DNA of 64,000 nt from Eledone cirrhosa. Lineage: Eukaryota. The notes beneath the pieces were generated by a model. The model was not told where the DNA came from and did not search any database. It saw nothing but the letters and a program-made list of their open reading frames with translations. Shown here one piece after another: positions 9,839 through 60,639 of this stretch (within the stretch, counting starts at the first letter, position 1; every line of letters starts with the position of its first letter). The position numbers and the translations under genes are program-made. The DNA lies in assembly GCA_964016885.1 (NCBI GenBank), contig OZ024745.1, forward strand, positions 13,454,001 to 13,518,000, in the 5' to 3' direction.

Positions 9839-10086
9839 GTGGAACAGGAAGAAGGGAGCACCCTCTCTTTGTGCTCCCGTGGAGAAGGGTCACACACTTT
9901 TTTTCGGGGGTGTGTGTGACCCCAAAACGATCCCTCCCTATTGAGGACGTTCTTGTTACTATTTTGTTTGTTATATTTTTCTTACTCGATTTTTATGTAA
10001 ACTCCCCCCACCCATGTACATGTCCCTTTCTTTTGTGCCCTAGTGGCAAATAAACAGAAATTTGTCTGTCTTTCTTTCCTCCCGCC

Positions 10087-10088
<2 letters not shown>

Positions 10089-10157
<69 letters not shown>
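10089..10157. repeat. (CT)n microsatellite between tail-to-tail LINEs
   Basis: Pure CT run. Confidence 0.97.
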
Positions 10158-10161
<4 letters not shown>

Positions 10162-18082: not shown

Positions 18083-18148
18083 ATATATATATATATAAAA
18101 TAAAATAAAATAAATAAATCAAATGTTTAAAATTTGGCTTCGTTTATT

Positions 18149-18203
18149 ACTGCTATATATATTTCGGTGATAGCCATCTTTGGCTGTGACTTCTTCAGGC
18201 AGT
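18149..18203 (-). ncRNA. Type I hammerhead ribozyme, left-arm copy (first stem II pair mismatched)
   Basis: Minus strand: ACTGC-CTGAAGA-agtcacAGCCAaagaTGGCTatcacc-GAAA-TATATA-TA-GCAGT. Confidence 0.8.
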
Positions 18204-19439: not shown

Positions 19440-21010
19440 TCCATAAAGCTTGAGGAAGGTCCCGGCCCTGAGGTGTCTGCATGTCCCGAAGAAGTCTGTT
19501 CTGAGTTTTATCAGGCGGCTTCCACCTATTAGTCTCTCAAGGGTCTAGTTCAGACATATTTTGCATATGCCAGATCCCCCTTTATCGGGTGGTACTTTCC
19601 TGATTATGGACCAAGCCAGAGAGTACGGGGTCCTGTCCAGCTTAAGCTTCCAGATCAGGTCGGAAAGAGCCATACTTTTCCTTTTGGCCTCCTTATTGAA
19701 GGAATGGCGATGGTTATACCAACGGTCTTTAAAGCTCGTTGATGTGGCTCCTATGTAGAGGTGTTCGGAGTTGGGGATTTTAACCCTACATCCGTATATT
19801 AGGTTCTTCTTAAGGCATTCATTACTAAGGGGACATGATTCGGGGTTTCTGCAGTTGCAGAGGATGGTCGACCTCTGCGTTCCTAGTGTGGCGTTCCCGT
19901 TACGTGTTACATGGTGGTCTTCCCCCGGGTACGGTGGGGGGTCCCCAGGTCTGTTTGAGTTTATTGGGTGGGCACTGGGTCCCCCCTACTCTCCTTCCAC
20001 ATGGTTCTGCAGGGTGCTTATATTGCTATCTTCTGGTTGTGTGTGGTTTTTTAAGCCTACTCCTGTTGATGCTAGCTATGTGTTGGGCCAGATTTCTGGT
20101 GGTGGAATACGAGAGCTTCACAGTGTGTCTGTTGAAGATCTTGTGGTATCTATGGTCCCTCGAGAAGCATTTATCAAGTGCTCCAAAGAATGATCGGGCC
20201 AAGATGTTCTTTAGGGCCGCTGAGTAGGGTGGGTTGTACCACGTGATTTTTCTGCGTCTACTCCTATATGGGTGGGTTGGGGGCGTCGTGAGTTGTTGGA
20301 GAGTTGTTGGGTTGCTGGTGGTTCCCGCATTGTTGCTTCCCCCTTGGGCGCTATGTGTTTTGCTATCTTCACGGCCCGAATCTGTGGGGGTGCTTGTTGC
20401 CCGCGCTGGGAGATCCACTGTGGGGTGGTCCCTCCGTTACCCCCCCCCCCCCCCACCTGTCGTGCGATTGGGGTCGTCGGGCCCGGGGTGGTTAGCATCA
20501 CCCCTGAGACTTCTACTCATATTGGGTTTCTTCTCATGGTTAAGCGTACTCGTCACCATCGCCCGTGTGGTGGTGTCGGGCTCATGGTGCTTATTTGTTT
20601 CTGTTCTGCCTGTATTGTTAGGGTTCGCCCCCTCCCGGGTGTGGGTGTCCGTTGGGCCATCCCCATCCCGGCGCCTCGGACTATATGTTATATTTTGGCC
20701 ATGTGCCGCCTTATTTAGAACTGCGTTGTAATATTCCGCGTTGCTATCGAAGATTTCCTTATTTGCGGACAGGCTGGAGATCCTGTCCGAGACACTCTTC
20801 ACCACGGCTTTGGTTATGGATCTAGGGTGGTTTGACTTCGCGTTCACATACACAAGTTTCTCGTTGGGCTTGTGGTAGGGGTAGTATTGCTCGGTGTTCA
20901 GGTTTAGGGTGGTGTCTAGGAAGTTAACTACCTTTCTATTTGGGTCTAGTTCGATACTGAGCCCCTGGTTCTTAAAGAAATAGCGAATACGCCTCTTCAT
21001 TCCCTCCAAC
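19440..21010 (-). pseudogene. RT thumb plus GIY-YIG endonuclease of the Neptune-like element, 5'-truncated and frameshifted
   Basis: ORFs 20437-21033 and 20026-20418, plus manual translation of 19870-19520. Confidence 0.85.
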
Positions 21011-22611
21011 ATAGTGGTGCTGTGTAACAACACACTGAGATGTGAACTCCCCTCAAACTATAGGGACTTCTCCAGAACATGTAGACACCTCTTGGCCGGA
21101 CCTCCCTCAAGCCATATGGGCAGTAACTACACCAAAGGTTGGGAACTCCCCTCAAGCCATAGGGACCCACCCAGGCTGAGCAGACACCATGATAGCCTAG
21201 AGATTGATTCTGACACAGCCTTTCTAATTTGGCCAACATCTTTATAACACACACACATTTTATTTTACTTGAATCTTCATTTTTTTATTTTTCATTTATT
21301 TTTCATTTGTTTTCTGTTTTCTTCACTTTATTGCCTTCTATTTCTTCATATGCATGCACCCCACCCCACCCCCAACCCCACCACCACCACCACCACCACG
21401 AGAAATGGTGGCAGGATGGATGAAAAAAACACACATATACTTCTTAATGTCAGCAGCAGCAAAACCTTGGCTGACCGCAGCACCAACACCACTACCTAAA
21501 TAAGGGTAGAGGTTAGATGTACTTAACAATAGCAAAAACAAACACTACAGGTAGCCTCACCCCAGAAAGAATTTCTATAGACTTTTGACTGAGAAATGCT
21601 CTCACAACTGACCAATGGGAGGAGTGACCTTGCAAATCTTTCTAACGTTGAGATTGGTTATAACACACACACATTTTATTTGATTAGCTTATTTTGTTTT
21701 ATTCTTTTACCATCTTGTTCCTCCTGCCACTTTATCCAACATCTTTCTGACTTTGAGATTGGTTATAGCACACACACATTTTATCTTATTTGAATCTTCA
21801 TTTTTAATTTTCATTTTTCATTTTTCACTTTTCATTAATTTTTCATTTATTTTCTATTTATTATTTATTTTCGGTTTTCTTCATTTTATTGCCTTCTATT
21901 TCTTCATATGCATGGCACAGCTCCCCCTCCCCCTCGACCACCACCACCACGAGAAATGGTGGCTGGATGGATGAAGAAACACACACAGATACTTCTAAAT
22001 ATCAGCAGAGCAGCAAGACCTAGGCTGACCACAGCACCAACACCACTACCAAAATAAGAGTAGAGGTCAGATGTACTTAACAATAGCTAAAACAAACACT
22101 ACAGGTAGCCTCACCCCAGAAAGAATTTCTATAGACTTTTGACTGAGGAATGCTCTCACAACTTACCAATGGGAGGAGTGACCTTATAAATCTTTCTAAC
22201 ATTGAGATTGGGTATAACACACACACATTTTATTTGATTATCTTATTTTATTTTGTTCCTTTACCATCTTATTCCTTCTACCACTTTATCATTTTTTTTA
22301 GCTGACTCCAACACCAACACCACTATCAACATAAGAGTAGAGGTCAGATGTACTTAACAATAACAAGAACAACCACTACAGATTGCCTCACCTCAGAAGG
22401 AATTTCTATAGACTTTTGACTGAGGAATGTTCTCACAACTGACCAATGGGAGGAGAAGATGTCCTTTGACGCTGAAATGCGTTTGTTTAAATTCATATGA
22501 TTCCAGTTCCTCAGTGAAATAACAACCCAACAAGGAACTGGGCATATCAGAGTATTGACAAAGTTAAACACCTCAACAACATGTGTACTCGTCTCTACCA
22601 CACTAATTCGG

Positions 22612-22666
22612 ACTGCCTGAAGAGGTCACAGCCAAAGATGGCTATCACCGAAATATATATAGCAGT
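22612..22666 (+). ncRNA. Type I hammerhead ribozyme with intact core and palindromic minimal stem III
   Basis: Stem I ACTGC/GCAGT, CTGAAGA, stem II GGT..AGCCA/TGGCT..ACC, GAAA, TATATA, cleavage triplet AUA. Confidence 0.88.
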
Positions 22667-22813
22667 AATAAACGAAGCCAAATTTTAAACATTTGATTTA
22701 TTTATTTTAGTTTGTTTTACATTACTCCGGAGTAACCAAACCAACCTGCGCACTTCGCCGAGTGCTCCAATCTGCATACTGAGGTGTTGGTATACAACCA
22801 ACATATACTCAAA

Positions 22814-22853
<40 letters not shown>

Positions 22854-23452
22854 AAACGGAGTTAAAGACTATGTGTACTTCTATATATATATACTAATAT
22901 ATATATATATATATATATATACTGATATGTATATATAAGTATATATATATATATATATATATATAGTGGGGAGCGCTACATCATCTATATGATGTGGAAA
23001 ATATTCCACCAATATTACCCAAATGATGTTGTCATCACCTTTAAAATCCATCCAGGACTTGGTCCTTATGGTATCCGCCCACTACAAAAATCAAACTCGT
23101 ATTTCATAATAACTATATGACACAACTACTACACCTCAACTGGTACCGCTCTCTTTAATATCTTACCAAAATACACCAAGACTGAAAAAGATCCCATAAT
23201 ATTTAAAAGTTTACTGGACAAATCCCGGATAAACCTCTTACACCCGGATATGTCTCTGAGTATAACAACTCTTTACTAGTGTGGGATACGGTGTCCAAAA
23301 TATGGGTAGGTTGTGAACCCATCATCTGAAAGACTTCTTCATCAGGGGGTGCTGTTAAGTTAGTCATGGCCTGGGCGAACACTGGCCGGAACCTATCAAG
23401 ATTATATATATATATATATATTAAAAAGTAGAGGTGTAACACACGAGTTTTG

Positions 23453-23552
23453 ATATATTAGTAAAAGGAAAAGAAAATGCTGACAGTATACTTATTCCTA
23501 ATTAAACTATTTTTCACTGGGAAAAATTTGTCACCATTTTCTTTTCCTTTTA

Positions 23553-23560
<8 letters not shown>
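23453..23560. repeat. Short fold-back (about 32-bp arms) in (TA)n context
   Basis: TATATTAGTAAAAGGAAAAGAAAATGCTGACA ... TGTCACCATTTTCTTTTCCTTTTACTAATATA, one mismatch. Confidence 0.8.
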
Positions 23561-24552: not shown

Positions 24553-24555
<3 letters not shown>

Positions 24556-24748
24556 TTAAATAAAAACAAAACAATAACAATAACAAAGAGTGCAGTACGA
24601 ACAGTGTTGGTATTAGGTTCACGCTTGAGAGTGTGGGGGACGACGTTTCGAGCATAAACCCTTCATCAGGAGAAAGGTGGGAAGGAAAAGAGTTCCGAGG
24701 GTGTGAGGAGTGGTGGAAAGAGTTTAAAAAGGAGGGGGATTAAAAGGT
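24553..24748 (-). mobile_element. Penelope pLTR-like fragment with minimal hammerhead motif (about 24640-24675)
   Basis: Minus strand: CTGATGA-A-GGGTttatGCTC-GAAA-CG-TC; stem I poorly paired; flanked by (TA)n. Confidence 0.65.
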
Positions 24749-24793
<45 letters not shown>

Positions 24794-25039
24794 GGGGGGT
24801 GGGGAGAGAGAATTAGATTTCACCTCGGTGGGATTTGATCTCAGAACGTAAAGAGCCGGAACAAATCCAGCAAAGTATTTTGTCGGACTTGCTAAACAAT
24901 CCACAGCTTTTTAATGGTTTTTAATTTAGGTTGAGGTAAAAAGTGTGGCGGGAGGAGGGCGGTTAAGTCGATTAAATCGATTCTAGTACTTGACTGGTAT
25001 TTTGTATCATCAACCTCGGGATCAATCAAATAAAATACC

Positions 25040-25440
25040 ACCTAAGCTATCTTCAATTCGGTATTCATACCAACCCTTACCTATGGTCATGAATCTTGGT
25101 AAAGACCGAAAGAATACGATCACAAGCGGCTGAAATGGTTTTTCCCTGAAGGGTCTTTGGAGTAACATTACTTGATAGAGTGCGTAACTCAGAGATCAGA
25201 GAGTTGCTTCATGTAGAGCCGCTACTTCTCCGAATTGAGAGATCACAGCTCCGATACTATGGACCTTTGGCTAGAATGTCTCAGAAAAGAATCGTTGGAC
25301 AGATTTTACAAGCAAAACCGACCGGTAGGAGACCCAGGGGTAGACCTCGAGCAAGATGGTTGAATAACATCCATGAGCTTGGCTGGTCACACTTGGGGAT
25401 CCAACCGGATCAGTTTGGAGGCGGTTGCTTCTGACAGGAC
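25040..25440 (+). mobile_element. Degenerate RTE/RTE-X LINE 3' fragment
   Basis: RNSEIRELLHVEPLLLRIERSQLRYYG..GRRPRGRPRARW. Confidence 0.8.
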
Positions 25441-25475
25441 CCGCTTTAGCAAATTAATATTTTTACAGTTGATAT

Positions 25476-25609
25476 GTATTTCTATTTCCTGTTTTACCAT
25501 TAATGATGTCATGTAACGAACATTACAGCAATAATTCTTGTCAACAGAAGACATAACGTTCAGTTAAGACACCGTACACAGAGAACCAGATTTTATAATA
25601 CCCCTCTCT
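25476..25609 (-). other. Conserved 134-bp TATA-plus-hairpin element, copy 1
   Basis: Reverse complement of 58410-58543 with 2 mismatches; function unknown. Confidence 0.7.
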
Positions 25610-25695
25610 CTCCACCTCTCACACAGTCTCTTTCTCTCTTTCTCACTCAGTCTCTCATTTTCTCTCTCTCTACCCCCTCTCTCTCTCTCTCTACC

Positions 25696-25764
<69 letters not shown>

Positions 25765-26066
25765 GCATGTGAACATGTACAATTTTAATTGAAATTTATA
25801 ATTGTTAATTTTTCATTACCAACCCATCACATATCTAAACAACTCAACTGTAATATTATCTTTTTTTTTTAATATTTAATATTTTATATGCATTGGATGA
25901 TGTGATGATAATGATGATGATAATAATGTTTGACATATAATATTAATAACAATTAATAACCATTATAATTATAAGGACATTTTCTCGAATATTTGATTTT
26001 TTTATATACATTTATTTATTGATGTATTTGATTTTTTTACTGCATTGGATGAGATGATAATAATAA

Positions 26067-26410
26067 TTGTTTCTACTTTTGGCACAAGGCCAGCAATTAC
26101 CCAGTGCATTACTGGTACTTTATTTTATCGACCCCGTAAGGATGAAAGGCAAAGTTAACCTCGGCGGGATTTGAACTCAGAATGGCAAGGGCCGTAACTC
26201 TATACGTCAAAGCATGGCGTCCGACCCGAGATGATAATAATAATAATTGTTTGTTTCTACTTTAGACACAAGGCCAACAATTTGGGGGGAGGGGAAAGTC
26301 GATTAAATCGAACCCAGTGTACTACTGGTACTTTATTTTATCGACCCCTGTAAGGATGAAAGGGAAAGCTAACCTCGGCGGGATTTGAATTCAGAACGTA
26401 AAGGGACGTA
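26067..26410 (-). mobile_element. Two adjacent partial tRNA-derived SINEs (family 1)
   Basis: B-box GAGTTCAAATCC and core CTTT(G/C)CCTTTCATCCTTAC(G/A)GGGTCGATAAAATAAAGTACCAG on the minus strand. Confidence 0.85.
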
Positions 26411-26543
26411 TTTGTTTTATTTGCCACAAATACTTCGGATGAAAGAATAACAACAATTTCTAACATAATATTAATTATGATTTCTTTGTTGACAATGTTT
26501 GTAAAAACAAGTAAACATTGAGGACAGCAAGTGACGAGACAGA

Positions 26544-26810
<267 letters not shown>

Positions 26811-27049
26811 AGGGGTGGGAGCATGCGTGTAAAAACAAAACAACAAAGCAAAGAGAAAATTAAAATTAATTTCCCCGAAAAGATAGAGACTTCTGAGGGG
26901 GAGACGTGGATAAACCTCACCAAAAACCACGGTCACTCAAACCCCTAGAGCAAGTGTCCCCATCCTAATAGCCCCCCCCCCCCACCCCAATATACAAGTG
27001 TATACTCAGAATAGGCTCATATACTCGGATCATACTTGTCACTACCCTG

Positions 27050-27775
27050 ACTTTCAAGTGAAACTTGAAGAAGTTGATGAGGATTTGGTGAAAGAGGAAA
27101 GTGTTTTTCTTCAGCCCTTTCAGTGGCGACTATCATACGTCATCTTTCAACATGGCAACTAGAGAGATAAAACTGTCTGCCTTTCCCTCCTAAAAGGAAG
27201 ACGTTGGAGCAATCTTCAAGATAGACTCAGCTGATAGCCGGACCCATCATATATGAGACAGCAGGTGTTCGACATAAACTTACAAGTCAGCAATGCTCGA
27301 ACACTGGACAAGTGCGCGCAGGGTGGCTTTGTCACCTTGGTGATGGCATTTCCATGTCTAAAGAGTTTATATGGAACAGGCAATGCTCTCTGGTAGTACT
27401 GCCAGGCCAATAATTGCTATAAGTTATCCATGGTTCATGGATCTAAGGTCCTCTGGAAATGAGTGACTAGTTGATTTTCGTTGACGTCCGGAGTCTCCTC
27501 AAGAACATCGTCGCCTTTAACTACACCTAACCCTCTATATAACACCAAGATTGAGTTTCCACCAATCGTACTGCCTGATTAGCAGAAGACTGTGAACGCA
27601 TGAACACATTCCAGTTTCCAAGGATTCCCTCTCGGTCTTCACTCGACCCAGAACTGCAGCTCTGTCAAGGAGATGAGCTGAGTAAACATTTCAAGCCAAT
27701 GGTGACCACAGTTGCTCACCACCATGGAAAAGCGGAAAATGTCGCAGCTTCAGCGCATGTCTGTGCATCATTAAC
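27050..27775 (-). mobile_element. Old, degenerate Tx1-clade ORF2 3' fragment
   Basis: LAWQYYQRALPVPYKLFRHG resembles LAWQCYREALPVRDKLYRHG in element C. Confidence 0.75.
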
Positions 27776-27811
27776 CGATATAATATTAATTAATAATTAT
27801 AATAATTATAA

Positions 27812-28002
27812 TTGTTTCTATGTTTGGCACAAGGCCAACAATTATCCCAGTGTATGACTGGTACTTTATTTTATCGACTCCCGTAAGGATGAAAGGCAAA
27901 GTTAACCTCGGCGGGATTTCAACTCAGACCATAAAGGGCCGTAACTCTTTGCTGCAAAGCATGGTGTCTGACCCTCTACCGATACTGCCAATACACCGCC
28001 CT
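27812..28002 (-). mobile_element. tRNA-derived SINE (family 1), near full-length
   Basis: Head AGGGCGGTGTATTGGCAGTATCGG, B-box, shared core. Confidence 0.85.
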
Positions 28003-28016
28003 TATTATAGTAATTA

Positions 28017-28186
28017 CTAGCAGAATGGCCTGGCGTTGCTCGGGATTTGCTCTAGGGTTCTTATATATTTGATATATATTTATCCTTATCGAGCCCCGTG
28101 AAATAAATACGTTTGTTTATATTTTGTTATTGTGTATGCAAAAATATCTGTACACGAATATATAATTATATATATATATATGTATA

Positions 28187-28222
<36 letters not shown>

Positions 28223-28459
28223 TGTAACGTTTTTCGAAATATTTGCGTTCACAGATTGATTTTTTTAGTTTCAGAAGATTCCGTTAAGGGTGAAAGCAGC
28301 AATTCATAGCTAAACTTTAATCTGTTATTTATATATATATATATATATATATATTAAAATAACAGATTAAAGATATTTGCTCTACGGTTCTTATATATTT
28401 GATATATATTTATCCTTATCGAGCCCTCTTTGGATTTTAGTCTTCAAATTTATTATTAT

Positions 28460-28538
<79 letters not shown>

Positions 28539-28996
28539 TAACAGATTAAAGTTTAACAGATTAAAGTTTCGCTGCTTTCACCCTTAACGGAATCTTCTGA
28601 AACTAAAAATATCAATCTGTGAACGCAAATATTTCGAAAAACGTTACACACTATATATATATATATACACTATATATATATACATATATACACACACACA
28701 CAGCGTCATGATGTCGTAATGCAGACAGCCAGACATACAGACAGATATTATAAGGGCGCAACGTTATATCTATGCATCTATCTAAAAAGAAAGACTAAGA
28801 ATTATAGAGTGAGATCGCTTTTTCGCCTAATGCGGTCCCTACGGCATTGAAAATTTGAAATACTTTTTGCTCAAAACACTCACACGACCATAAGTATTAC
28901 ATGTGTAAAGTTTGAAAACAATCGGTTGGGTGGTTCTCGAGTTTTAGGGAGTCAGACAGACAAACAGACAGACATTCTCTGTTTTAGATATATAGA
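28017..28996 (-). mobile_element. Non-autonomous Helitron 1
   Basis: Minus strand begins TC-TATATA with a (CTGT)n tract and ends with an imperfect GC hairpin (28029-28044) then CTAG followed by T. Confidence 0.72.
28180..28690. repeat. Nested inverted repeats carrying a degenerate hammerhead (about 28267-28316, +)
   Basis: 28217-28300 is the reverse complement of 28571-28653; AGTTT-CAGAAGA-TTCCGTTAAGGGT-GAAAGC...GCT-AAACT. Confidence 0.7.
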
Positions 28997-29925
28997 CTAG
29001 CAGAAAACCACCCGGTGGGCGGTTTTCTGCTAGCAAATCTAGTGTATATACTGATATTGTTGAGATTTGGATGAGAAATGTTTTCGGCACCACATGTTCA
29101 CCGTCTCTCGGTGTGTCTTTTATGCATGTATAAATATATATGTTATCTATACGGTGAAATCTTTGAAATAAATATATGTTAAAACGAAAAAGGAGAAAAT
29201 AAATAACTGGCGGTTAGAAAAAAATATTCCTATGAAATTTTAATCATACCATTAGGTGTGAATAAGGAAATATTTTTTTATTGTCAAAACAAATGTTCAA
29301 AATTTTTTGAATTATTTCCAATTTTTTCATGAAATTGAACACTGGACATTGGCTGCTGGAAATGGAAATTAAATCGTATTTAATTGTATTTAAATTTCTA
29401 ACCTTATTTCATTATTTATATTTTTTCAATAAGAAATAAAAAAAAACAACAAAAATTGAAGAAAAAAATTGAACAAATCAAACGTAGGTTATGGAACTGC
29501 GCAATCTGATTAATAAATTACCTCATCAGCAGCAAATTTCTTTAAATGGTCCTTATTATCAGCAGCAACAACCACAAATTCAATGGCAACCTTCTTCAAA
29601 CCACAAATTCAATGGCAACCTTCTTCGCATGGTGTCAAGTCAGAACCGCCTCGAACTGGTTACTTCTGGCTTGTGCAAGGTGTCTCTATAGCAACCAGCG
29701 ATTCCCTCGGCCTCAGTGACCAAAGTCAGTGGAGAGGGGAAGTAATATTTCTGTAGCACGTGTTTTAGCGTCTATTCACTCTCTCTCTCTCTCCCTCTCT
29801 CCCTCCCGCTATCCCCCTCTCGTAGTCTGTCTCTTTCTTTCACTCTCACTCTCTCTCTACGCACGTGTTTCCACTGTCGGACAGACAGACAGACAGAGAA
29901 ATTGCTGGTTATATATATAAGTAGA
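28997..29925 (-). mobile_element. Non-autonomous Helitron 2, head-to-tail with Helitron 1
   Basis: A|TC start at 29925, (CTGT)n tract, terminal hairpin and CTAG at 28997-29000. Confidence 0.72.
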
Positions 29926-35767: not shown

Positions 35768-37776
35768 ATGGCTAATTCAACTCTGCACGAAGCAGCTGAA
35801 AGCCTTCCTCACAAATTAACACCTCACACCGACACCACCATTGTAAATGTTACTACGTTTGCCAACACAAAAAAAAATATAAGCACTAGCAATATTTTAA
35901 ATTTGTCTCAGGCAGACATTCATTTCCCGCCATTACCAATGACTGCAGGTGTTAAAGCCTCCACCACCACCACCACCACTGCGACAACCACCACCATCAC
36001 CACCACCGCGACAACAGAAACAAAAGAAGAAAAAAATAAATTAACTCGTGATGTCGAAATGAAATCAAGCAAAATGGACTCTTCCCCACCAAAGACGACT
36101 GACGTCACCACCACCACAACTGAAACTAAAATTAATATTAACGATAGCAACAACAACAACAATGACATTATAAAAACCCCCCTCAGTTTCGCCAGAGTAG
36201 CAAAACAGTTCGAAGCATTTACGGTAACTCAGGAGGATTTAGAAAATGCCAAACAAATGGTAAAGAAAGATGGGTACAGGGTCAGCCTCACCCCCCCCCC
36301 CCCCCACACACACACACACCTAATAAAATGGAGCATCGGCGCCTATGCACCGTGTCGTATAGAACAATAAATACAAAATCGCGCCGAGTGGAACGGGCAT
36401 CCGAGTCCCAAATCCAAAAAGCTTTGGGACATGTGTGGGCAAGAAAAACCCACATCAGACGTGGGCAAAAGTATGGAACCGTGGACGTGTTCTTTGAAAC
36501 ACCAGAGGAGGCTAGAGAACACTCCATGGCCCCATTAAGAAGTGACGACTTCACACTCGTCCGAAGCTATTGTGGCCAGAGACTCGTAAAGATCAGGGTG
36601 ACCCACGTTCCACCGGCCATCGAAATTCCCTGGCTAATAGCGGCTGTCCTCGCCGGCATCGAAGCCAACACGAAAATAATAGCAATAGCAAAAGAAAAGC
36701 AGGAGAACTGGTCCGGATCTGGGATGGAGCTCCTGATCCAAGCGGACCAAAAAAGCATTGAGGAGATCCCAGAGGTAATAGACCTCACTGACGGCAGCCA
36801 CCTCACGGTAATTGTCGAGGGCAGAAGACCTAGGTGTGTCGTTTGTGGTGAAGGAACCCACCTAAGGGCTTTCTGCCCTCAGGCTAAAAGGTTGAGGCCA
36901 CCTCTCCTACCCACCCCAGTGACACAACCATCAACACCACCAGTAGCAGAGATGGCAGCAACAACTGTAGTAGCAACAACAGAAGCAACTATAACAGCAA
37001 CAACCCCAGCAACAGTAGAAAAACCAACACCACCACCACCACCAGCAAAACCAACACCACCACCACCCAACGCTCCAGAACTAGCACCAGCGCCTACACC
37101 ATCCACCACGCCACAACCAAAACTAACGGCTGTGGAGGATTTTCCACTCCCCGGCCTATCACAACTGGAGACAGATTGTGACGACGAGGAGTGGGAAACG
37201 ATATCCGGAAAAAAAAAAAGAAACCAAAAAAGAAAAAATTCTCTTCCTTCCCCCTCCAAAAACAAAATACAGAGGGAAACAAATAAATTAAGAAACAAAA
37301 ACGTTAGGACAGATATGCCACCATCCACACCAGCATCACCAACCCCATCAACCCAAACACCAACACCATCACCATCATTAACCCCAACACCACCATCACC
37401 TACACCACAAAAGTCACCAAAATGCGAAACAGAAACAAACCCACAACAAACGCAAACAAAACAAAACAACCAAAACGATACACACTACACAGCATTAAAT
37501 TTGAACAACAAGCAATTATTACACTACATCCAACACAACACCAGCATCACAGAAAAAGACTACACAACAACCCCAAAATTCACACCACCTCCACACATAC
37601 AAATCACTCGCATCACACAGAAAACGTACATGACACTAAAACAAAAATTCCCCAAAGACATCGGAGACTTCCGACAAGCACTCTCCAGGAGGATTTATAA
37701 GGACATCCTTCCTGAGGAGGCCACAAGCAGTGAAAAGGATGGAAAAACCGTCCTTCCCCTACGAGAAGTAAGGTAA
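35768..37776 (+). pseudogene. Tx1 element C ORF1, single frameshift at a poly-C/(CA)n tract near 36290-36320
   Basis: MANSTL.. frame joins the 482-aa frame containing CVVCGEGTHLRAFC. Confidence 0.82.
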
Positions 37777-37810
37777 GTGGTCTTTCCCATCTTTTCCACT
37801 CCTTTTCAAC

Positions 37811-40800
37811 ATGACCTCACTCAGAATAGGCAGCATAAATGCGCGTGGCTTGGGGTCGTCATGGAAGCAGGGCCACCTGCTCAACGACCTCAGGTCACTA
37901 AACATAGATGTAGTGGCCATCAGCGAGACCAGAATCTCCGAAGCACAGGCTTTCGCACCGATCTTCGGCGGCTACGATGTGTACGCATCTCCCAGCCGTC
38001 CGGGATCGGGGGGAGGAGTTGCTGTGCTTTTTCGGAGAGGTTTGGATCTTGCCATACGGGCCATCTTCCTGGACCCAGAAGGTAAGTTGGTGGTGCTGGA
38101 CGTGACCAGCGGAGACGGGCAAGCTTTCAGGTTAGTGGCCGTCTATGCCCCGACAGGAGCAGGGCGGCCTGATTTCTTCCGGCGTCTGGAGACCTTTCTT
38201 GGAACGTCCCGCTCTTTAGTGTTAGTGGGCGACTGGAACGGGATCTTAGATGCACGCTGGGATTGTGTGGGATTAGTGGATAGGGAAGGAGGGTGCAAGA
38301 GTCTCACCAACCTGCTCAGACGTTTTGAACTGTCTGACAGGTACCGAATGGATTTCCCGAATGTACCAGTGTGGACTTGGACAAATCGCATAGGGTCATC
38401 CAGATCATATCTAGATAGAGTATTTTGTAGGGAAATAGATAGGTCTAGCATAGGCTGTCCACAATTCAAGATAGTCAGCTACACGGACCACAAATTCGTG
38501 ATCTGTGTGCTTGACTTAGATAGGCTTCATAGACGAGGACCCGGCTACTGGAAGCTAAACGCGTCCTTACCAGCGCGCAAGGCCTACAGAGACCGGATTA
38601 GCGAACTAGTTAAGCGGGCGTTGACGGGGGCCATCGTCAACAACAAGTGGTGGTTTGCTCTGAAAAGAGCAATTAGAATAGAGTCCATTAGGTTTAGTAA
38701 GACTTTAGCAATAGAGAAAAATAGAGCAGAGGGAGAATTAGTTAGAAAATTAGATGAGGCGCTTAGCAAAGGCATCGCGACCGACGTACTTGCGGCGAAA
38801 TTGGCCCTTGACCAATTCTTCAATGCAAAGCACGAAGGCTGCGTTGTCAGAGCTAGGGTGCGTGCTCTCAGACACGGGGGGACGAAAGCCGTTCAATGGG
38901 CCCGAGTGGCGGAGGCGCGTCGTGGCAACAAAGCCACGATCCGGTCTTTGGTGGACCACGACGGGCGCATGCTACTCGATCCCGGGAAAATGTGTGAAGC
39001 TTTTCAGCGACACTCCGCTCAACTGTTCGGGGGCAGTGGCGGGCCGGATCGAGGGATGGACTTTAGTGTCTACCTCGACGGACTGCCGCGGCTTTCGGCC
39101 ACTGAGGCGGAGTGTTGCGAAAAGCCGATAACAACCGCGGAAGTACGGGATGCAATGACTAGTTGCACAAGGGGTAAATCGCCTGGTTTGGATGGTCTGC
39201 CCTATGAACTTTACGTACAAATGCCAAACTTGTTCGGAGGCCTCTTGGCGGACGTCTACTGCAACTGGCAACAGAACGGGAGAATATCCAGCTCTGTGAG
39301 CCGAGGAGCGGTGGCGCTGCTGAGAAAGGATCCGAACAAGGGGGATAACATAGATAATTTTAGGCCCATAACTCTGCTAAACACAGAGTTCAAGATTTTG
39401 GCCAAGGTGCTAGCAAAGAGGTTGGCGCTTGTCGTTGGTGGTCTGGTGGGAGAGGCACAGACATGCGCCATTCCCGACAGATCCATCCACGACAACCTCC
39501 ACCTCATGCGATACATCGTAGAGAGGGTAGCTAGGGAACCTGGCACGGGTGGGTCTTTGATCAATTTAGATCAGTCGAAAGCCTTCGATAGGGTCGACCA
39601 TCGTTACCTAACGGCAGTCCTGAGGGCGGCTGGCTTTGGGCCCGTCTTCAGCGGCTGGATCGCTGCCATGCACAGCGACATCTGCTCTGTAGTGAGAGTG
39701 AACGGTCACCTTTCGGAACCGTTCAACATCATGCGCTCGGTCCGCCAAGGATGTCCCCTCTCGTCTCTATTGTACGTATTGACTCTCGAGCCATTACTGC
39801 ACAAACTGGAGACGTTGAGGGGGGTCCCGCGCGAACTAGGATGCGGAAGATCCGTGTCAGCATATGCCGACGATGTCACCGTAGTGGTGTCGAACGCCAA
39901 ACACATCGAGGCGATCGGCACTACACTAAGAGAATACGAATCGGTGACAGGAGCAATGATCAACCAGGAAAAGTCAGTGGGCCTGCAGCTCGGCACCTGG
40001 AGAGGCAGGTCCATGCCGTCCAACAGCGTCGTCGGGCGCTGGACGGACGGACCGGTTAAATTGCTAGGGGTCTGGTTCGGTCCAGACCTCCAGACGGACA
40101 AAAACTGGGACGAGGTGACGAGCAGGGTGGCTTCTCTCACCCAGAAATGGGCCGAGAGGAAGCTATCCCTGAAAGGTCGAGCGGAGGTGGCGAATGCGTA
40201 CATCGCATCCGTCATCTACTACCGCCTGACCGTCGTACCTTGTCCTATGCCCCGCCTGACTGCGCTGGAGCGTTTGCTCTTTCGCTTCTTGTGGAAGGGA
40301 CGCGCTCCGATGGTTAGGCGGTCCATCTGCTGTCAACACCCGCTACGTGGAGGGCTGGGCATGCCGTGGCTGATGATGCGCAGACACGCGCTCAGGCTAC
40401 GACATCTCCACCTCTTCCTCGACGGTGATCAGGTGTGGTCGCCGTTTGCAAGACACGTTTTTCCCCAGCTCGTCTCCTTGACGGAGCTGCAGTCCTGGGT
40501 CAAGCGAAGACCGAGAGGGAGCGCTTGGAGACTGGAATGTCTTCAGGCGCTCACAGCCCTCGACCAATCGGGCAATGTGATCGGTGGAAACTCCACCTTG
40601 GCGTTCTATAGGGGATTAGTGGAGGGGAAGAGCGACGACGTACTTGGAGAAACTCTAGGCGTCGACGAAAATCAACTAGCCAATCTCTTCGGAAGGACTT
40701 TCGGGCCGGGGCCTATGGACAACTTCCAGAAATCCCTGGCCTGGCAGTGCTACCGAGAAGCTTTGCCAGTTCGGGATAAACTCTACAGGCATGGAGGTGC

Positions 40801-41230
40801 CGTCAGCCGGGCATGTCCGAGATGCGCGCAGGGCGACGAAACCGTCCTGCACGCACTCGTCCAGTGTCCGAGCATTGCTGACTTGTGGGTTTATGTCGAA
40901 CACCTGCTGTCACGTGTAGGATGGATCCAGCTATCAGCTGAGTCCATCGTGAGGATTGCCCCGCCCCCTTCCTTTAGCCTGGAAGGGCAGGCAGTTTTTA
41001 TCTGTCTGGTGGCCATGGCGAAAGAGATAGTATGGTGGACACGTTTGAAAGGGCTGAAGACGAGCACTTACCTCTTCGGTGATGCCCTGATTAACTTTTT
41101 CAAATTTCATTTGAAAAGGAAAATCAGGGTAGAGAGGGAAGTGCTCTCTTCCCAGCATTTTGTTGAAAGATGGGTGAGAGAAGCAAGTATGGCCCGAATG
41201 AATGGGCCTTCTCTGAGTATGTGTCTGTAA
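37811..41230 (+). CDS. Tx1 ORF2 polyprotein: APE endonuclease, reverse transcriptase, C-terminal Cys/His domain (1139 aa, intact)
   Basis: INARGLG, AISET, GDWN, SYLDR, TDHK; KSPGLDG, DQSKAFDRV, QGCPLS, YADD; CPRC..ETVLHALVQC. Confidence 0.96.
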   Translation: MTSLRIGSINARGLGSSWKQGHLLNDLRSLNIDVVAISETRISEAQAFAPIFGGYDVYASPSRPGSGGGVAVLFRRGLDLAIRAIFLDPEGKLVVLDVTSGDGQAFRLVAVYAPTGAGRPDFFRRLETFLGTSRSLVLVGDWNGILDARWDCVGLVDREGGCKSLTNLLRRFELSDRYRMDFPNVPVWTWTNRIGSSRSYLDRVFCREIDRSSIGCPQFKIVSYTDHKFVICVLDLDRLHRRGPGYWKLNASLPARKAYRDRISELVKRALTGAIVNNKWWFALKRAIRIESIRFSKTLAIEKNRAEGELVRKLDEALSKGIATDVLAAKLALDQFFNAKHEGCVVRARVRALRHGGTKAVQWARVAEARRGNKATIRSLVDHDGRMLLDPGKMCEAFQRHSAQLFGGSGGPDRGMDFSVYLDGLPRLSATEAECCEKPITTAEVRDAMTSCTRGKSPGLDGLPYELYVQMPNLFGGLLADVYCNWQQNGRISSSVSRGAVALLRKDPNKGDNIDNFRPITLLNTEFKILAKVLAKRLALVVGGLVGEAQTCAIPDRSIHDNLHLMRYIVERVAREPGTGGSLINLDQSKAFDRVDHRYLTAVLRAAGFGPVFSGWIAAMHSDICSVVRVNGHLSEPFNIMRSVRQGCPLSSLLYVLTLEPLLHKLETLRGVPRELGCGRSVSAYADDVTVVVSNAKHIEAIGTTLREYESVTGAMINQEKSVGLQLGTWRGRSMPSNSVVGRWTDGPVKLLGVWFGPDLQTDKNWDEVTSRVASLTQKWAERKLSLKGRAEVANAYIASVIYYRLTVVPCPMPRLTALERLLFRFLWKGRAPMVRRSICCQHPLRGGLGMPWLMMRRHALRLRHLHLFLDGDQVWSPFARHVFPQLVSLTELQSWVKRRPRGSAWRLECLQALTALDQSGNVIGGNSTLAFYRGLVEGKSDDVLGETLGVDENQLANLFGRTFGPGPMDNFQKSLAWQCYREALPVRDKLYRHGGAVSRACPRCAQGDETVLHALVQCPSIADLWVYVEHLLSRVGWIQLSAESIVRIAPPPSFSLEGQAVFICLVAMAKEIVWWTRLKGLKTSTYLFGDALINFFKFHLKRKIRVEREVLSSQHFVERWVREASMARMNGPSLSMCL

Positions 41231-45485: not shown

Positions 45486-46077
45486 CTTTTTGTTTTGTTT
45501 TTTAAATTGTTATTATTATGAGTGGTTCCTTAATGTGAGCATTGCGTGGCTTAAGAATGAAATTATTAATAATTGTCTCCACTCCAGGCACAAGGCCAGC
45601 AATCACCCAGTGCATTACAATAATATAATATACTTTTTACTGAAGTTGCCTGTTATTGTTGTTGGCTATGTCGGTGGTGGTGCTGGGGATTTTTATATTG
45701 TTGGTGAGGAAGGGGTGAGCTAGCAGTGCCATAGTTGTTGATGTTGACGTTTGGCCGGTGGCCAGGTCACTAAGTCAATCTATTTATATCTTTTGCTAGC
45801 TTCTCCCTTGTCTAGTGATACCGCCACCTTCCCCTTTCTCTCTCAAGTTAACAGGGGAATAGTGGAGGTAGCAATGAAGGAGTGGTGGCGGCAGTGATGG
45901 GATAGTGGTAGCAATGATGGATGGGTGGGGTGGTGGCGGCGGTGGCTTTGACGTTACTGAGTTTTGTGATATGTAGTATATATGAGTGTGTGTCGCGTAT
46001 GTTTAATATATATTGTGTTGACATATTCCCGTAAAATTGGGATCAAACATTTTTTTTTAAAAACTTGAGACAATAAT

Positions 46078-46268
46078 TGTTTCTACTTTAGACACAAGGC
46101 CAGCAAATACCCAGTGCATTACTGGTACTTTATTTTATCGACCCCGTAAGGATGAAAGGCAAAGTCAACCTCGGCGGGATTTGAACTCAGATCGTAAAGA
46201 GACGTAACTATGCTGGAAAGCATGGCGTCCGACCCTCCACCGATACTGCCAATCCACCGCCCTAAAAC
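46078..46268 (-). mobile_element. tRNA-derived SINE (family 1) with 25-bp TSD
   Basis: TTTTTTAAAAACTTGAGACAATAAT at 46053-46077 and 46269-46293. Confidence 0.9.
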
Positions 46269-54392: not shown

Positions 54393-54743
54393 ATTGATGG
54401 TGAGGTTGTTGATGATGGCGGTGGGTGTCTTGTCAATGAGGGTATGTGTGTGTGTGGGGGGGGGGGGGGGTTTATATATATAATTCGTTAGTGTCTCTCC
54501 AGGAACATGTATATTTATATTGAAGATATTGTAATGGTTGCCGCTGTTGTTGAAGACAATGTAAGGAGGATGTGATTATATTGCGGGGGGGGGGGTCGTT
54601 AAGTGCAGATTAGAAATAGAACAGTGGAAACTAGAGTAAAGAAAAGCACCTGTTTACACTTTTACCTTATATTGCAATGTATCGTATACTAAAATATATA
54701 GGTAAAGTTTGTAGATCTTGATTGTCATTTTAATACTGACGAC

Positions 54744-54774
<31 letters not shown>

Positions 54775-54779
<5 letters not shown>

Positions 54780-55150
54780 AACGAGTAGGACCCCGACGGC
54801 TGAGCTCAAGCCGTTTCGACGGCTAATTCTGGACTAAATGAAAATTTTTATCCTGGTATATGAATAGCCGAGCTTCCACAAATTGCCATGATAGAATTAT
54901 GTGTCTCAACAACAAACTTTTGACCAATCCTTGTGACAATCACTTTTACCATATATGGAATTACCCCCTGAGAAGCTCGGCTATTCATATACCAGGATAA
55001 AAATGTTCATTTAGTCCAGAATTAGCCGTCGAAATGGCTTGAGCTCAGCCGTCGGGGTCCTACTCGTTCCTATTACCCACTCTACTACCCTAAGTATTGA
55101 GTACTTTGGTGCGTTATGGTCCACCTGGTTCCTTACCACATTTCCTTCGT
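54775..55150 (+). mobile_element. Fold-back element (102-bp arms 54775-54876 and 54972-55073), probably Penelope pLTR-derived
   Basis: Arms differ at 2 positions; (TA)n on both sides; contains a hammerhead. Confidence 0.8.
54963..55058 (+). ncRNA. Type I hammerhead ribozyme with one lesion in the CUGANGA box
   Basis: Stem I ACCCC/GGGGT; CTGAGAA; stem II CGGCTA/TAGCCG; GAAA; stem III (C/T)GGCT/AGCCG; GUC site. Confidence 0.75.
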
Positions 55151-55176
55151 TATATATATATATATATATATATATA

Positions 55177-55374
55177 GTGGTGGAACACTGGAAGGTAATA
55201 TCCGTAGTGATAGAGCACTCAGTCCATGGGACGAGTTAGGTAGAAGTGGTTACACAACAGTTAGTTCACCATACCGAGAACAATTGTTTCACCTTAGCGG
55301 ATCCTCAGCTAAGGTTCCGCTAAGGTGAAACAATTGTTCTCGGTATGGTGAACTAACTGTTGTGTAACCACTTC

Positions 55375-55376
<2 letters not shown>
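55177..55376 (-). mobile_element. Fold-back element with perfect 61-bp arms (55241-55301 and 55316-55376)
   Basis: Exact reverse complement with a 14-nt loop; (TA)n on both sides. Confidence 0.82.
55273..55315 (-). ncRNA. Minimal hammerhead ribozyme candidate
   Basis: Minus strand: ACCTTAG-CTGAGGA-TCCGCTAAGGT-GAAA-CAATTG-TT-CTCGGT; palindromic stem III ACAATTGT; weak stems I and II. Confidence 0.65.
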
Positions 55377-55419
<43 letters not shown>

Positions 55420-55423
<4 letters not shown>

Positions 55424-55578
55424 ATAATAATAGAGTTGAAGACCAAAATCCAAAGAGGGCTCGATAAGGATAAATATATATCAAATATATAAGAACCGTA
55501 GAGCAAACATTTATTAAAATAACAGATTAAAGTTTAAGCAAAGAATTTGCGTAAACTTTAATCTGTTATTTTAATAAA

Positions 55579-55580
<2 letters not shown>
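55420..55580 (-). mobile_element. Fold-back fragment (29-bp arms 55508-55536 and 55552-55580), same family as 28300-28460
   Basis: 55435-55507 is the near reverse complement of about 28375-28447. Confidence 0.78.
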
Positions 55581-55612
<32 letters not shown>

Positions 55613-55619
55613 TCAGCTT

Positions 55620-56230
55620 CTACTACAACGTAATATAATATCTGTATACAAATACAACGGTGGGTCCACCCACAGCCCCGGTGGACAGAATGGAGAAGGC
55701 GTTTCCCCGGAGGACGGCAAGGGAGACGCGCTGGAAAGGCCACTCCAACTCGCGGGGCTCACACCTGGGGCTGGCCAGCTCAGCGCCTATGGTGGTGAGT
55801 AAGGAGGTAGCCCTGGGGCCGAGGACACCAGAAGTCTCCACTGCCAGGGGTACGACCACAAACCTGTCGGAGAGCGACCGGTATTTGAGGAGTTTGGCCC
55901 CCTCAGTCCGACGTGCAGCAGAACCTGGGTCAGTCGCAGACTGCACCAGGTTGCGGCTGCAGAAAGTGTCGGTGCAAGTGGCATCCCAGACGAGGGGTTT
56001 GCCACCACGCAACGGGAAGATGGTCATGCCATCTGGCCTTTTGCTGTCCCCTCGATCCAGTCCCACCGGCTCGAGCTGGGAAGGGAAGCCTGCAGCATCC
56101 AAGCCATGCTTATGACCTCGCTGAGGGCAGCATGGCGTGGAATGCGGCTGGCACTGTGGTGACAGGAAAGCGGGTGGAGGCCGAAAGAGTCCACGGTGGA
56201 ACCGCAGCGACATTGGTGTGGCTGGCAGAT
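55620..56230 (-). mobile_element. CRE-clade-like non-LTR 3' fragment (RLE domain)
   Basis: [51 protein letters not shown]; 3' end at (TA)n; short duplicate at about 56470-56512. Confidence 0.82.
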
Positions 56231-57211
56231 CCGGAAACAGACTCAGGGAAACACCGATTCGCAGGCTATAGTGTGTTCGTTTTTTACGCGAAGATGTGTT
56301 CGTGAACGCGGTGCGTTAAGCAAATTCGCGTAATGCAAGTCTAATTGCATAGTAAGAACCTTTGTTAAGTTATGTTCCAAACACCAACTTAATAATACAT
56401 CAGAGTGTGAGTGATGCGTGTCTTGGATGTACATGATAAAATGACAAGTCAGTTAATCATATTGATGGCCACTCCACAACCCCGGCGGACAGAATGGAGA
56501 AGGCGTTTCCCCACATCATAATTCTGATGAATAAAAAAATTTAAAACCACACGCGTTATAGCGTGTTATTCGCGTAAACTGAATATTTAATGATATTTTT
56601 TTCAAGAGGCGTTAAAACGAATCAGCGACTTCAAGTTGGAGTAAAAAGCGAACAGACTGTATATAATAGATTTACAAGACAAAAACGGAGTTTTGGAGTT
56701 ACCTTTCGACATGCTAGAAACAGCAACTAAATCTCACTCACACCTGACTTTATTATCTAAAGGAAGTAAACGTTTGATAATATATTCCAATCTAACCCAT
56801 GCTAGCATGGAGAATGGGCGTTAAACGATGATGATGATGATGATGATGATGATGATATACTACACCTGGAAGAAGGGTGACCTGGAGCTAAACAACAACA
56901 GCTACAACAACACTAATTTAGTCAACAAGAAAGTCTATGAATACGAAATAACAACCAAGTTTGCCTCAAACTACACTTTATATCTTAGAAAGAAAAGATA
57001 CATTGTATAATAAAGTCTAGATAGATTATGTCTCAAATGTCTTCTAAGGGGGGTAAGTCTGGTTAAACAACTAATATTTTTAGTTGTCAAGTTTCCAGTA
57101 TTTGGTCCTCATATCTTCTTTAGTCTAAATATATTCAGATATCTTCATATTTCTCTTAATCTACCGATACCTTACATTCTTTACCAAATACTTTTACTAA
57201 TACAAATATTG

Positions 57212-58984: not shown

Positions 58985-59620
58985 AAAATTGTTGGCCTTG
59001 TACCTAAATGAGAACCCATTATTTTGTCAACTTTGCCTTTCATCCTTACGGGGTCGATAAAATAAAGTACCAGTAATGTACTGCTAATTGCTGGCCTTGT
59101 GCCTAAAGTAGAAACAATTATTTTGTCAGGGAGGGAAGAGACGTGTTCGTGGGTCTTTTCAGAACTCACGCGACTGATGGGAGAGAATAAGGAACGTTTC
59201 TTAAACTGAACAGGTGACCTTAATGCTTGCAAGAAAATGAACTCTAGTAAAGGCGCTCAAATGTCAGGTGAAAGTGTTAAACTAGGTGGCAGGTTAAGTC
59301 TGCTACTTAAGTAAGCCGCAGCGGGATTTTGAACTCTGAACGCAAAGAGCCGGAAGAAATATCACACGGTCTCTCATCCAACGCCCTAACAATTGCACCA
59401 AACCTCCACCCTAAACTGGTGCATTATTTTGTCGACCTCGAAAGAGTGAGACAGAGAGAGAGAGAGAATCGGCCCTAGTACTTGACTGGTACGACCTCGA
59501 ATGAATGAAAGGTAAAGTTGACCTCGGCAACATTTGAACTGAGAGAGTAAGGAGCCAAAACAAATACCACAAATTACTCTATCTGACGTTCTTACAACTC
59601 TGCCAATTCGTCGCCATTGT
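58985..59620. mobile_element. Cluster of partial family-1 SINEs in both orientations
   Basis: Core motif at 59025-59120 (+); degenerate copies at 59320-59615 (-). Confidence 0.7.
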
Positions 59621-59699
59621 ATGTGTGTGTGTGACAGCTCACACCTATGCAGGTTTAGCTGGCCTCCTCCAAGGTATATCTCGTTGGAGGTGTCTTGGG

Positions 59700-59876
59700 T
59701 AATTTAATGATAGGGACCCCAGTCTTATCATCTCATTTCTATAGCTGAGTAAACTGGAGCAAGGTGAAATAAAGTGTCTTGCTCAAGGGAACAACACATC
59801 ACCCGGTCCGAGAACTGAACTCACAACCTTTCGATTGCAAGCCCAATGCTCTAACCACCAAGCCATGCGCCTTCAC
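59700..59876 (-). mobile_element. CORE/MIR-like tRNA SINE (family 2)
   Basis: tRNA-like head on minus (GGCGCATGGCTTGGTGGTTAGAGC) and AAGTGTCTTGCTCAAGG core. Confidence 0.75.
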
Positions 59877-60204
59877 TGTCGCCATTAAACTAAGTAAAAG
59901 ATTACCAAAGAAACAAAATATATTTTTATAAACATTTAAGGGCGCAGGTCCTAATTCCGGAAATTGGGACCTTCACACATTTGATCTGAATGGGGTAGAT
60001 GGAATGTTTGCGGGTGTTGATGACAGAAATATCCAATTTCTGGTAGTGGTGGTGGTGGTGGTGGGGGGGGGGTTTACCGAAGACACACGCGTAATATTTA
60101 CTTTTTATAACATGTTTTATTGGTTTGTCTGATAAACACACTAAACATGGACTGTATTAAGGACATACATACTATCTGAAGGACATGCATGCTATCACCT
60201 TGCC

Positions 60205-60320
60205 ATTCTGAGTTCAAATCCCACCGAGGTTAACTTTGCCTTTCATCCTTACGGGGTCGATAAAATAAAGTACCAGTAATGTACTGGATAATTGCTGGCC
60301 TTGTGCCAAAAGTAGAAACA
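60205..60320 (+). mobile_element. Family-1 SINE lacking its 5' end
   Basis: GAGTTCAAATCCCACCGAGGTTAACTTTGCCTTTCATCCTTACGGGGTCG. Confidence 0.85.
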
Positions 60321-60639
60321 AATATATTATTTATCATTAATTGTGACTGCTTATTTCGAAATGATATCTCAAAAACATCGTCTAGATTCGCCTCTCATTA
60401 TTGATAACAAACATTATATAACATCGTTGTTTACATTTACATTTTCCTACAATCAACAATAATCAAGATTCGATATTCGCTGATTTGTTCTTCAGCCAAT
60501 AAAAAGACAGAAAATGATAATAAAAAACCTGCACCAATTTCTTATTTCAAAAGTTCTTATTTCTTATTGATTCCAGTTGAGAGGTTCTGTCTGTAAGTCA
60601 ACTCTGATTAACAGTTATGTCACTAATTCATCTATATTG

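Follow-up and report, generated by a model that had tools for sequence, protein, structure and literature searches.

Results

Three Fold-back Elements Lie in One (TA)n Tract

The window analyzed here, a 64,000-nucleotide stretch of Eledone cirrhosa DNA, holds at 54747-55610 three non-coding elements, E1, E2, and E3, which are parted by (TA)n and each carry an inverted copy of their own sequence, as the sequence-only reading had described. The (TA)n runs lie at 54747-54777 on the left, 55151-55176 between E1 and E2, 55380-55420 between E2 and E3, and 55582-55610 on the right; every element therefore has (TA)n on both flanks, which masks any target-site duplication. In all three of the elements a short, 5'-truncated inverted copy adjoins the forward copy head to head, joined 5' to 5', with both 3' ends facing (TA)n. 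The polarity given earlier had to be corrected, E1 lying on the plus strand and E2 and E3 on the minus strand, and a tail present on one side only of each element (77 nt in E1, 64 nt in E2, and 88 nt in E3) had been overlooked. Whole fold-back units measure only 160-370 bp and contain no ORF, and no tandem array was found over E1-E3 at the locus.

Arms of 102, 61, and 29 bp had been claimed. The value for E1 is correct, with 100 of 102 positions paired, whereas the arms of E2 and E3 extend to 68 and 35; the two arms differ at two positions in E1, two in E2, and one in E3. With the TA tracts taken out, 500 dinucleotide shuffles gave perfect inverted matches of at most 22 nt, whereas the longest in the real sequence reaches 61 nt. 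The three elements are indeed unrelated in sequence, since comparing the forward copies pairwise revealed no significant likeness (p = 0.43-0.87, 1000 shuffles). A kinship between E2 and the family-3 copy at 28.2 kb (p = 0.012, one of 15 pairs) was rejected, p rising to 0.65 with the core letters masked; the only word common to the two is a 9-of-10 match in loop II.

Hammerheads at the locus were called by motif scans and pairing by eye. An Rfam search of the window at E ≤ 1 returned five matches, all under gathering score, and no hammerhead among them; a match to MIR6217, under its cut-off, reflects a hairpin only.

E1 comprises a tailless inverted copy of the family-1 3' end (54775-54876, minus strand), which stops at the short end, and a forward copy on the plus strand (54877-55150), a 5'-truncated family-1 3' end that runs past the family short end at 55073 into the 77-nt tail (55074-55150). 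The arms are 54775-54876 and 54972-55073, the inverted copy being 5'-truncated at the match to 54972. A type I hammerhead can be assigned at 54963-55058 (+), with stem I formed by 54963-67 and 55054-58, the core CUGAGAA at 54968-74, a long helix II, GAAA at 55031-34, and a predicted cut after GUC at 55053. The inverted arm had been said to begin inside a CUGANGA box at 54972; the position is right, but the box (54968-54974) reads CUGAGAA. The core of this copy has a C3/A8 mismatch, where many other family-1 copies have U3-A8, a pair known as a natural, active hammerhead covariant (cited passages of PMC3088659 and PMC4209133). The claim that the antisense arm interferes with the ribozyme held up in folding calculations: the first stem I pair had a probability of 0.44 in the absence of the arm but of about 1e-82 in its presence, and the arm would block the hammerhead fold in any read-through RNA.

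E2 reads on the minus strand. Its forward copy (55241-55310) carries the core CUGAGGA (55308-55302), GAAA (55290-55287), a palindromic helix III, and a predicted cut after 55279, and passes the family short end at 55241 into a 64-nt tail (55177-55240, minus strand). The inverted copy (55309-55376, plus strand) is 68 nt long with substitutions at 55311 and 55315. A 14-nt loop consisting of the stem I 5' strand plus CUGAGGA had been proposed for E2; we find instead a loopless palindrome with 68-bp arms centered on AGCT (55307-55310), and beyond AG the supposed loop is inverted arm with its two substitutions. Loose ends behind 55310 give the family-2 stem I as CGAG paired with CUCG, of which E2 retains AG only, and the family-2 core is consensus by motif and pairing (CUGAGGA/CUGAAGA).

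In E3, also on the minus strand, the forward copy (55508-55547) lacks a core: it starts in helix III of the hammerhead-like motif of family 3 and reaches the short end at 55509-55512, beyond which lies an 88-nt tail (55421-55508, minus strand). Its inverted copy (55546-55580, plus strand) is 35 nt long with one substitution, at 55551; the arms, 55508-55542 and 55546-55580, enclose a 3-nt loop and differ by one mismatch. E3 had been recognized as the stem III/stem I end of the family found near 28 kb, and it does hold helix III, the cut site, and the stem I 3' strand. The arm was thought to start about at the cleavage site, which we could not reproduce: the fold lies in helix III at an AATT palindrome (55544-55547), and the predicted cut is 7 nt farther downstream. 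At 55508/55580 both arms carry the same rare letter, at odds with 99.5% of the family depth in run X1 (1,053,439 of 1,058,198), and so are likely to derive from one template.

By motif and pairing, family 3 has a hammerhead-like motif with U4A: both copies at 28 kb and the loose-end consensus of three runs read CAGAAGA. For another substitution at the same position, U4C, much reduced activity in vitro is described (PMC3088659, in the part cited); U4A is not mentioned there. No copy at the locus, whether E1, E2, or E3, is seen to carry a complete consensus ribozyme. The sequence-only reading had held that a family consensus lacking a cleaving core would speak against it, and half of this was found, with C3/A8 in the E1 copy and U4A in family 3.

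Related Units Elsewhere in the Window

Family 3 recurs near 28 kb as pieces at 28220-28330 (+) and 28533-28651 (-) and as a unit at 28355-28462 made of an inverted stub of about 19 nt and a tail-only forward copy. In this unit the forward copy starts 3' of the entire hammerhead and the inverted copy starts 3 nt past the predicted cut. Across 28190-28670 two family-3 copies stand tail to tail; their 5' ends match exactly and the TA flank is mirrored (97 nt, 99%), and one of the two has a 15-nt direct duplication beginning near the predicted cut site. The cluster is hosted by an element at about 28010-29001 with a CTAG 3' end, a candidate non-autonomous Helitron. That element shares 51 nt at 98% (28046-28096) with the family-3 tail, and part of the read depth over the tail may stem from it.

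A larger head-to-head unit at 18098-22816 has the same build as E1-E3 but is unrelated to their three families. It is flanked by (TA)n on both sides and contains RT/GIY-YIG ORF fragments at 19545-21057 (-), consensus type I hammerheads at 18198 (-) and 22617 (+), inverted arms of about 1 kb and 0.37 kb with 95% identity, and a tail of about 94 nt (about 22723-22816). Its protein matches are weak (GIY-YIG Pfam E 0.0012, under the cut-off; Atlas lead 0.94, 46% HTH_animal). A second broken RT/GIY-YIG ORF, at 16748-18118 (-), has a CX4CXXC linker and abuts (TA)n at 18083; according to the cited part of PMC8557442, this linker type belongs to Neptune and Nematis. A PDB sequence search with the RT fragment 17183-18118 gave no matches. 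At 23422-23555 a fourth small fold-back stub lies in (TA)n; its arms measure about 36 bp and its one-sided tail 33 nt, and a motif scan found no hammerhead core in it. Units of this build within the window differ from one another: in 18098-22816 the junction (21023/21024) is 1,593 nt from the hammerhead, 23422-23555 is coreless, and 28355-28462 has a tail-only forward copy.

Other repeats were also noted. An un-inverted 3' stub with (TA)n flanks at 24553-24748 (-) carries a textbook minimal hammerhead (CUGAUGA...GAAACGUC). Beside the (TA)n of E1-E3, an ORF 3' end at 55611-56315 (-), whose Atlas relatives at 0.94 are unnamed eukaryotic proteins, resembles the restriction-like endonuclease end of a non-LTR retrotransposon and is perhaps a fourth insertion in the tract. 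A dispersed SINE-like family occurs at 24790-27950, 45560-46260, and 59020-60340, and resembles octopus SINEs. Two related LINE copies stand tail to tail at 8951-10794 (648-bp inverted repeat, 89%), with a third relative that has an open 1152-aa frame at 37772-41230.

E1-E3 Represent Three Abundant Families

We compared 54700-55650 with four of 23 listed public sequencing runs at 80% likeness, skipping stretches at TA tracts. A total of 29,921 contigs of X1 and 44,169 of 12.5 million X21 reads were aligned, and the counts below come from the best 22 of 920 loose ends, the best 15 of 207 joints, and the best 40 of 304 substitutions. The elements belong to three abundant families, many copies of which stop exactly at the arm ends (55073, 55241, and 55509-55512) and continue into (TA)n. 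Among the best 22 of 920 loose ends, a (TA)n end behind 55073 is found in 75 contigs of X1, 2969 reads of X21, and two contigs of X5, one before 55241 in 62 contigs of X1 and one contig of X5, and ends at 55509-55512 in 65 contigs of X1 and in 1832 and 1533 reads of X21. Because short ends are followed by (TA)n in so many copies, each family has both a short end and a tailed long end. A further loose end, before 55067, was considered as a family end and taken to be a subfamily variant.

Native sequence continues upstream of the folds in family 2 in all four runs and in family 3 in three of the four. Among the same best 22 of 920 loose ends it is seen behind 55310 in 70 contigs of X1 and 1823 reads of X21, and behind 55546 in 170 contigs of X1 and 3852 reads of X21; the exact junctions of E1-E3 are absent from this set. 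In family 1, of which E1 is an unusually long copy with a forward part starting 86 nt upstream of its own hammerhead, depth is still about 21,500 at 54883, near that start. All three families thus run upstream past what is present at the locus, leaving the proposed non-autonomy unsupported. 5' truncation is variable: depth drops inward from the 3' end and the joints among the best 15 of 207 differ, with subfamily divergence contributing.

The U3 letter of the family-1 core (C>T at 54968) accounts for 91,152 of 173,706 of the depth in X1, 34 of 58 in X5, and 4.7 of 4.7 in X6. The C3/A8 form is common in the X21 organism, since only 77 of 464 X21 reads carry U3. In organism A, C3/A8 makes up about half or more of family-1 depth, and non-consensus cores are common in abundant families.

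Several signals were set aside. Read-end piles in X21, a RAD-seq run, at 54839, 54959/62, 55009, 55020, and 55285 were attributed to restriction cuts rather than junctions (four of six on AATT in the window, among the best rows). Two opposite-strand joints to 55546 were also discounted, as the window's family-3 sequence ends there and the site is again AATT. A metagenome scan returned two bacterial-type loci of 68-70% GC that match a 21-nt seed only and were ascribed to chance; scans of viral and prokaryote collections gave no matches.

Inversion Set by the Ribozyme Core Is Not Supported

The sequence-only reading had proposed that the ribozyme fold or core sets the template switch. In two of the three elements the inverted copy does stop no more than 2 nt from the core box, but the junctions mark three different landmarks, picked after the fact: N7 of the core in E1, AGCT across the stem I/C3 border in E2, and AATT in helix III in E3. 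Other copies mostly read through the core or invert elsewhere. The end of the hammerhead is 15 nt from the short end in family 1, 32 nt in family 2, and 22 nt in family 3, and because the motif lies within 15-32 nt of the short end, arms long enough to be noticed tend to end inside it. An inversion point fixed by the ribozyme core is not supported.

The family-2 fold at AGCT recurs, with the family letter at 55315, in 17 contigs of X1 and in X21 reads from eight starts. It amounts to 454-867 of a coverage of 163,134 in X1 and 28-61 of 2,231 reads in X21, or 0.3-0.5% and 1.3-2.7% of the coverage that reaches the core. For family 1, 13 joints are found among the best 15 of 207. Their inverted 5' ends cluster at 55010-55026, a span of 17 nt within the 3' strand of the long helix II; the core lies 38-54 nt upstream of them and the predicted cut 28-44 nt downstream. 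Nine of the 13 also have forward 5' ends at 55009-55019. The two 5' ends are at most 11 nt apart in nine of these 13 joints, as well as in E2 and E3. Four of the 13 have a forward part that begins farther downstream than the inverted part does, so that the inverted part cannot be a self-copy of the forward part. Loop letters differ among the 14 contigs of the 54838-55010 joint.

Over 55022-55008, mirrored family-1 depth shrinks roughly tenfold (about 2.07 million to about 0.21 million), and X1 depth over the core is 4-8% of its value just downstream. The profile is not monotonic (about 72 thousand at 54986 and 174 thousand at 54968), and with 174-192 thousand across 54947-54968 there is no drop upstream of the core. 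The helix II cluster may be a real stall or annealing site, or it may reflect a subfamily with a shorter perfect helix II.

Discussion

We consider E1-E3 likely to be separate, aborted Penelope-like insertions in one (TA)n tract, each consisting of a tailed, truncated 3' end placed head to head with a shorter inverted copy. That they are stubs of Penelope-like elements in the first place is very probable. This assignment is structural, all four features on which it is based being present (an inverted copy, a one-sided tail, variable truncation, and a hammerhead) and no parent RT/GIY-YIG ORF being linked to the families by loose ends of 30 letters each. The earlier view was right in treating the elements as pieces of hammerhead-bearing retroelements that target (TA)n, and in linking them to Penelope-like elements. 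On this reading the locus adds three further families that show the known Penelope-like insertion pattern; both the architecture and the idea of self-priming have already been published. An adjacent inverted 5'-truncated copy, a tail often at one end only, and a bias towards (TA)n are described in the cited part of Craig et al. (2021, PMC8557442), and head-to-head inverted pLTRs with a tail on one, junction palindromes, and a microhomology 5' junction in that of Arkhipova et al. (2013, PMC3846280). The cited sections of Frangieh et al. (2024, PMC11167929) report that the Poseidon protein nicks and extends both strands of AT-rich DNA, that two internal start sites define the Poseidon tail, and that hammerhead mutants leave insertion unchanged in vitro.

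Under the Penelope-like reading, a GIY-YIG endonuclease would nick both strands of (TA)n, each nick would prime reverse transcription from either of two start sites inside the RNA, yielding the short end and the tail end, and both cDNAs would halt after tens to a few hundred bases. The 3' ends of the cDNAs would then join via a few complementary bases, with repair filling in the remainder; the bases joining two same-sense cDNAs could only come from self-complementary sequence, AGCT in E2 and AATT in E3. Junctions would fall in the hammerhead mainly because few copies are long and the motif starts at a distance of 15-32 nt from the short end; catalysis would play no part. The resulting stubs were probably dead on arrival. 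Some observations sit less easily with this account. The tails of 64-88 nt exceed the published 30-40 nt, although the ORF-bearing unit at 18098-22816 has one of about 94 nt; two of the three inverted ends are close to the core box; the tenfold drop in family-1 depth coincides with the cluster of listed joints; and 5' ends at most 11 nt apart, as in nine of the 13 best-listed family-1 joints and in E2 and E3, would suit snap-back equally.

Snap-back self-priming, in which a strand folds on a short palindrome and extends on itself, was proposed for Penelope in 2013 (in the Discussion of PMC3846280). It fits E2 and E3 as well as twin priming does: palindromes lie at the center of both, loops are near zero in nine of the 13 best-listed joints, and both E3 arms are likely from one template, given the rare letter at 55508/55580. 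Acting alone, it cannot produce a tailed copy that starts downstream of, or is shorter than, its partner, as seen in four of the 13 listed joints and in the units at 28.36 kb and 18.1-22.8 kb; as the general explanation we find it somewhat unlikely and lean towards twin priming with microhomology. Compatible with twin-primed Penelope-like insertion, the helices of the hammerhead RNA, rather than its chemistry, may decide where cDNAs stop and join, by stalling reverse transcription on entry into helix II and through paired strands that supply annealing bases. All 13 inverted and nine of the 13 forward 5' ends of the best-listed family-1 joints fall on the helix II 3' strand, next to the tenfold drop in mirrored depth between 55022 and 55008, and E3 folds in helix III. 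These joints are, however, the best-supported 15 of 207, with ends nearer (TA)n masked; the non-monotonic depth implies that subfamilies differ inside helix II, so that a subfamily with a shorter helix would mimic the joints; and the X21 read-end pile at AATT 55020 is a probable restriction cut. On balance we regard a role for the helices as unlikely. The stronger idea, that there is a class of non-autonomous ribozyme retroelements whose template switch is set by the catalytic core or the cut site, is highly improbable. In its favor, N7 of the core is where the inverted copy of E1 starts, the fold of E2 is placed at the stem I/C3 border, and further family-2 copies fold at AGCT too (17 contigs of X1 and eight X21 starts). 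Set against this, the three landmarks all differ; folding at the core accounts for just 0.3-2.7% of family-2 coverage; the 13 family-1 joints (among the best 15 of 207) all lie elsewhere, and depth does not drop upstream of the core; the 18098-22816 unit inverts 1.6 kb away; and Poseidon insertion in vitro is unaltered by hammerhead mutants (PMC11167929, cited part).

One or more of the families, family 3 above all, could instead be genuinely short, non-autonomous elements that have a fixed 5' end and are copied in this form. The family-3 copies at 28220 and 28651 share a 5' end, the family is abundant despite its CAGAAGA core (loose-end consensus of three runs), and pLTR-derived non-autonomous elements are known. 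Yet the shared 5' end may come from a single local inverted duplication, the mirror including the TA flank, and there are no tandem repeats of the non-LTR-retrozyme type and no shared fold-back junctions, which makes short elements quite unlikely. Inverted repeats in a TA setting also recall MITEs with terminal inverted repeats and TA duplications, or fold-back artifacts of assembly. Here the repeats are not terminal, a tail being present on one side, the arms measure 48-64 nt in the best-listed joints against 102 in E1, and single un-inverted copies exist; as for artifacts, the arms differ at two, two, and one sites and the same families fold back in public runs. Either explanation is barely credible.

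Our search of the literature, which covered few subscription papers, found no study mapping Penelope-like inversion junctions onto hammerhead helices. If the helix reading were true, short fold-back stubs would be a genome-wide footprint of the fold of the element RNA, and impaired cores such as C3/A8 and U4A would spread because only the fold matters. Abundant, young, and very short stubs provide many junctions near a known RNA fold and are useful for deciding between twin priming and snap-back. Such stubs also mimic MITEs and miRNA hairpins, as the MIR6217 match illustrates, and call for caution in annotation.

In LINE-1 twin priming, as reportedly set out by Ostertag and Kazazian in 2001, a 5' inversion arises from two primings with microhomology at the junction. 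The inverted part of LINE-1 is upstream sequence and the 3' end is not duplicated, whereas both copies in each of E1-E3 carry the 3' end. Closer are the endonuclease-positive Penelope-like insertions of Penelope/Poseidon, Neptune, Nematis, and Hydra, which, in the cited parts of PMC8557442 and PMC3846280, share with E1-E3 the head-to-head truncated copy, the one-sided tail, the junction palindrome or microhomology, microsatellite targets that hide duplications, and a hammerhead near the 3' end. E1-E3 differ from these published insertions in being ORF-less and in having tails of 64-88 rather than 30-40 nt. The origin of the inverted 5' ends and the purpose of the hammerhead are stated to be open in the cited passages of PMC8557442 and PMC11167929. 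With Poseidon of Anolis carolinensis studied in vitro (PMC11167929, in the part cited), the present elements have in common short and tailed 3' ends, AT-rich DNA, the use of both strands, and a hammerhead close upstream of the start sites, features that are known here from sequence alone.

Compared with known type I hammerheads, in the sources as cited, the motifs share the topology, the palindromic helix III (E2), and a U3-A8 core (family 1) as in the Cercyon elements of Schistosoma. They depart from these in several ways: the helix II region of family 1 spans 56 nt and its helix III is longer, U-U replaces the usual G10.1-C11.1 in families 2 and 3, and the cores of family 3 and of the E1 copy show U4A and C3/A8, respectively. 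The cited part of Cervera and De la Pena (2014) describes paired hammerheads 100-700 bp apart on opposite strands and ties lone motifs to truncated elements. Finally, the non-LTR retrozymes (bioRxiv 10.64898/2026.07.22.740005, in the sections cited) are likewise non-coding and pLTR-derived and carry a type I hammerhead, but they form head-to-tail tandems with one hammerhead per unit, whereas E1-E3 are single head-to-head stubs in which the motifs are broken or blocked.
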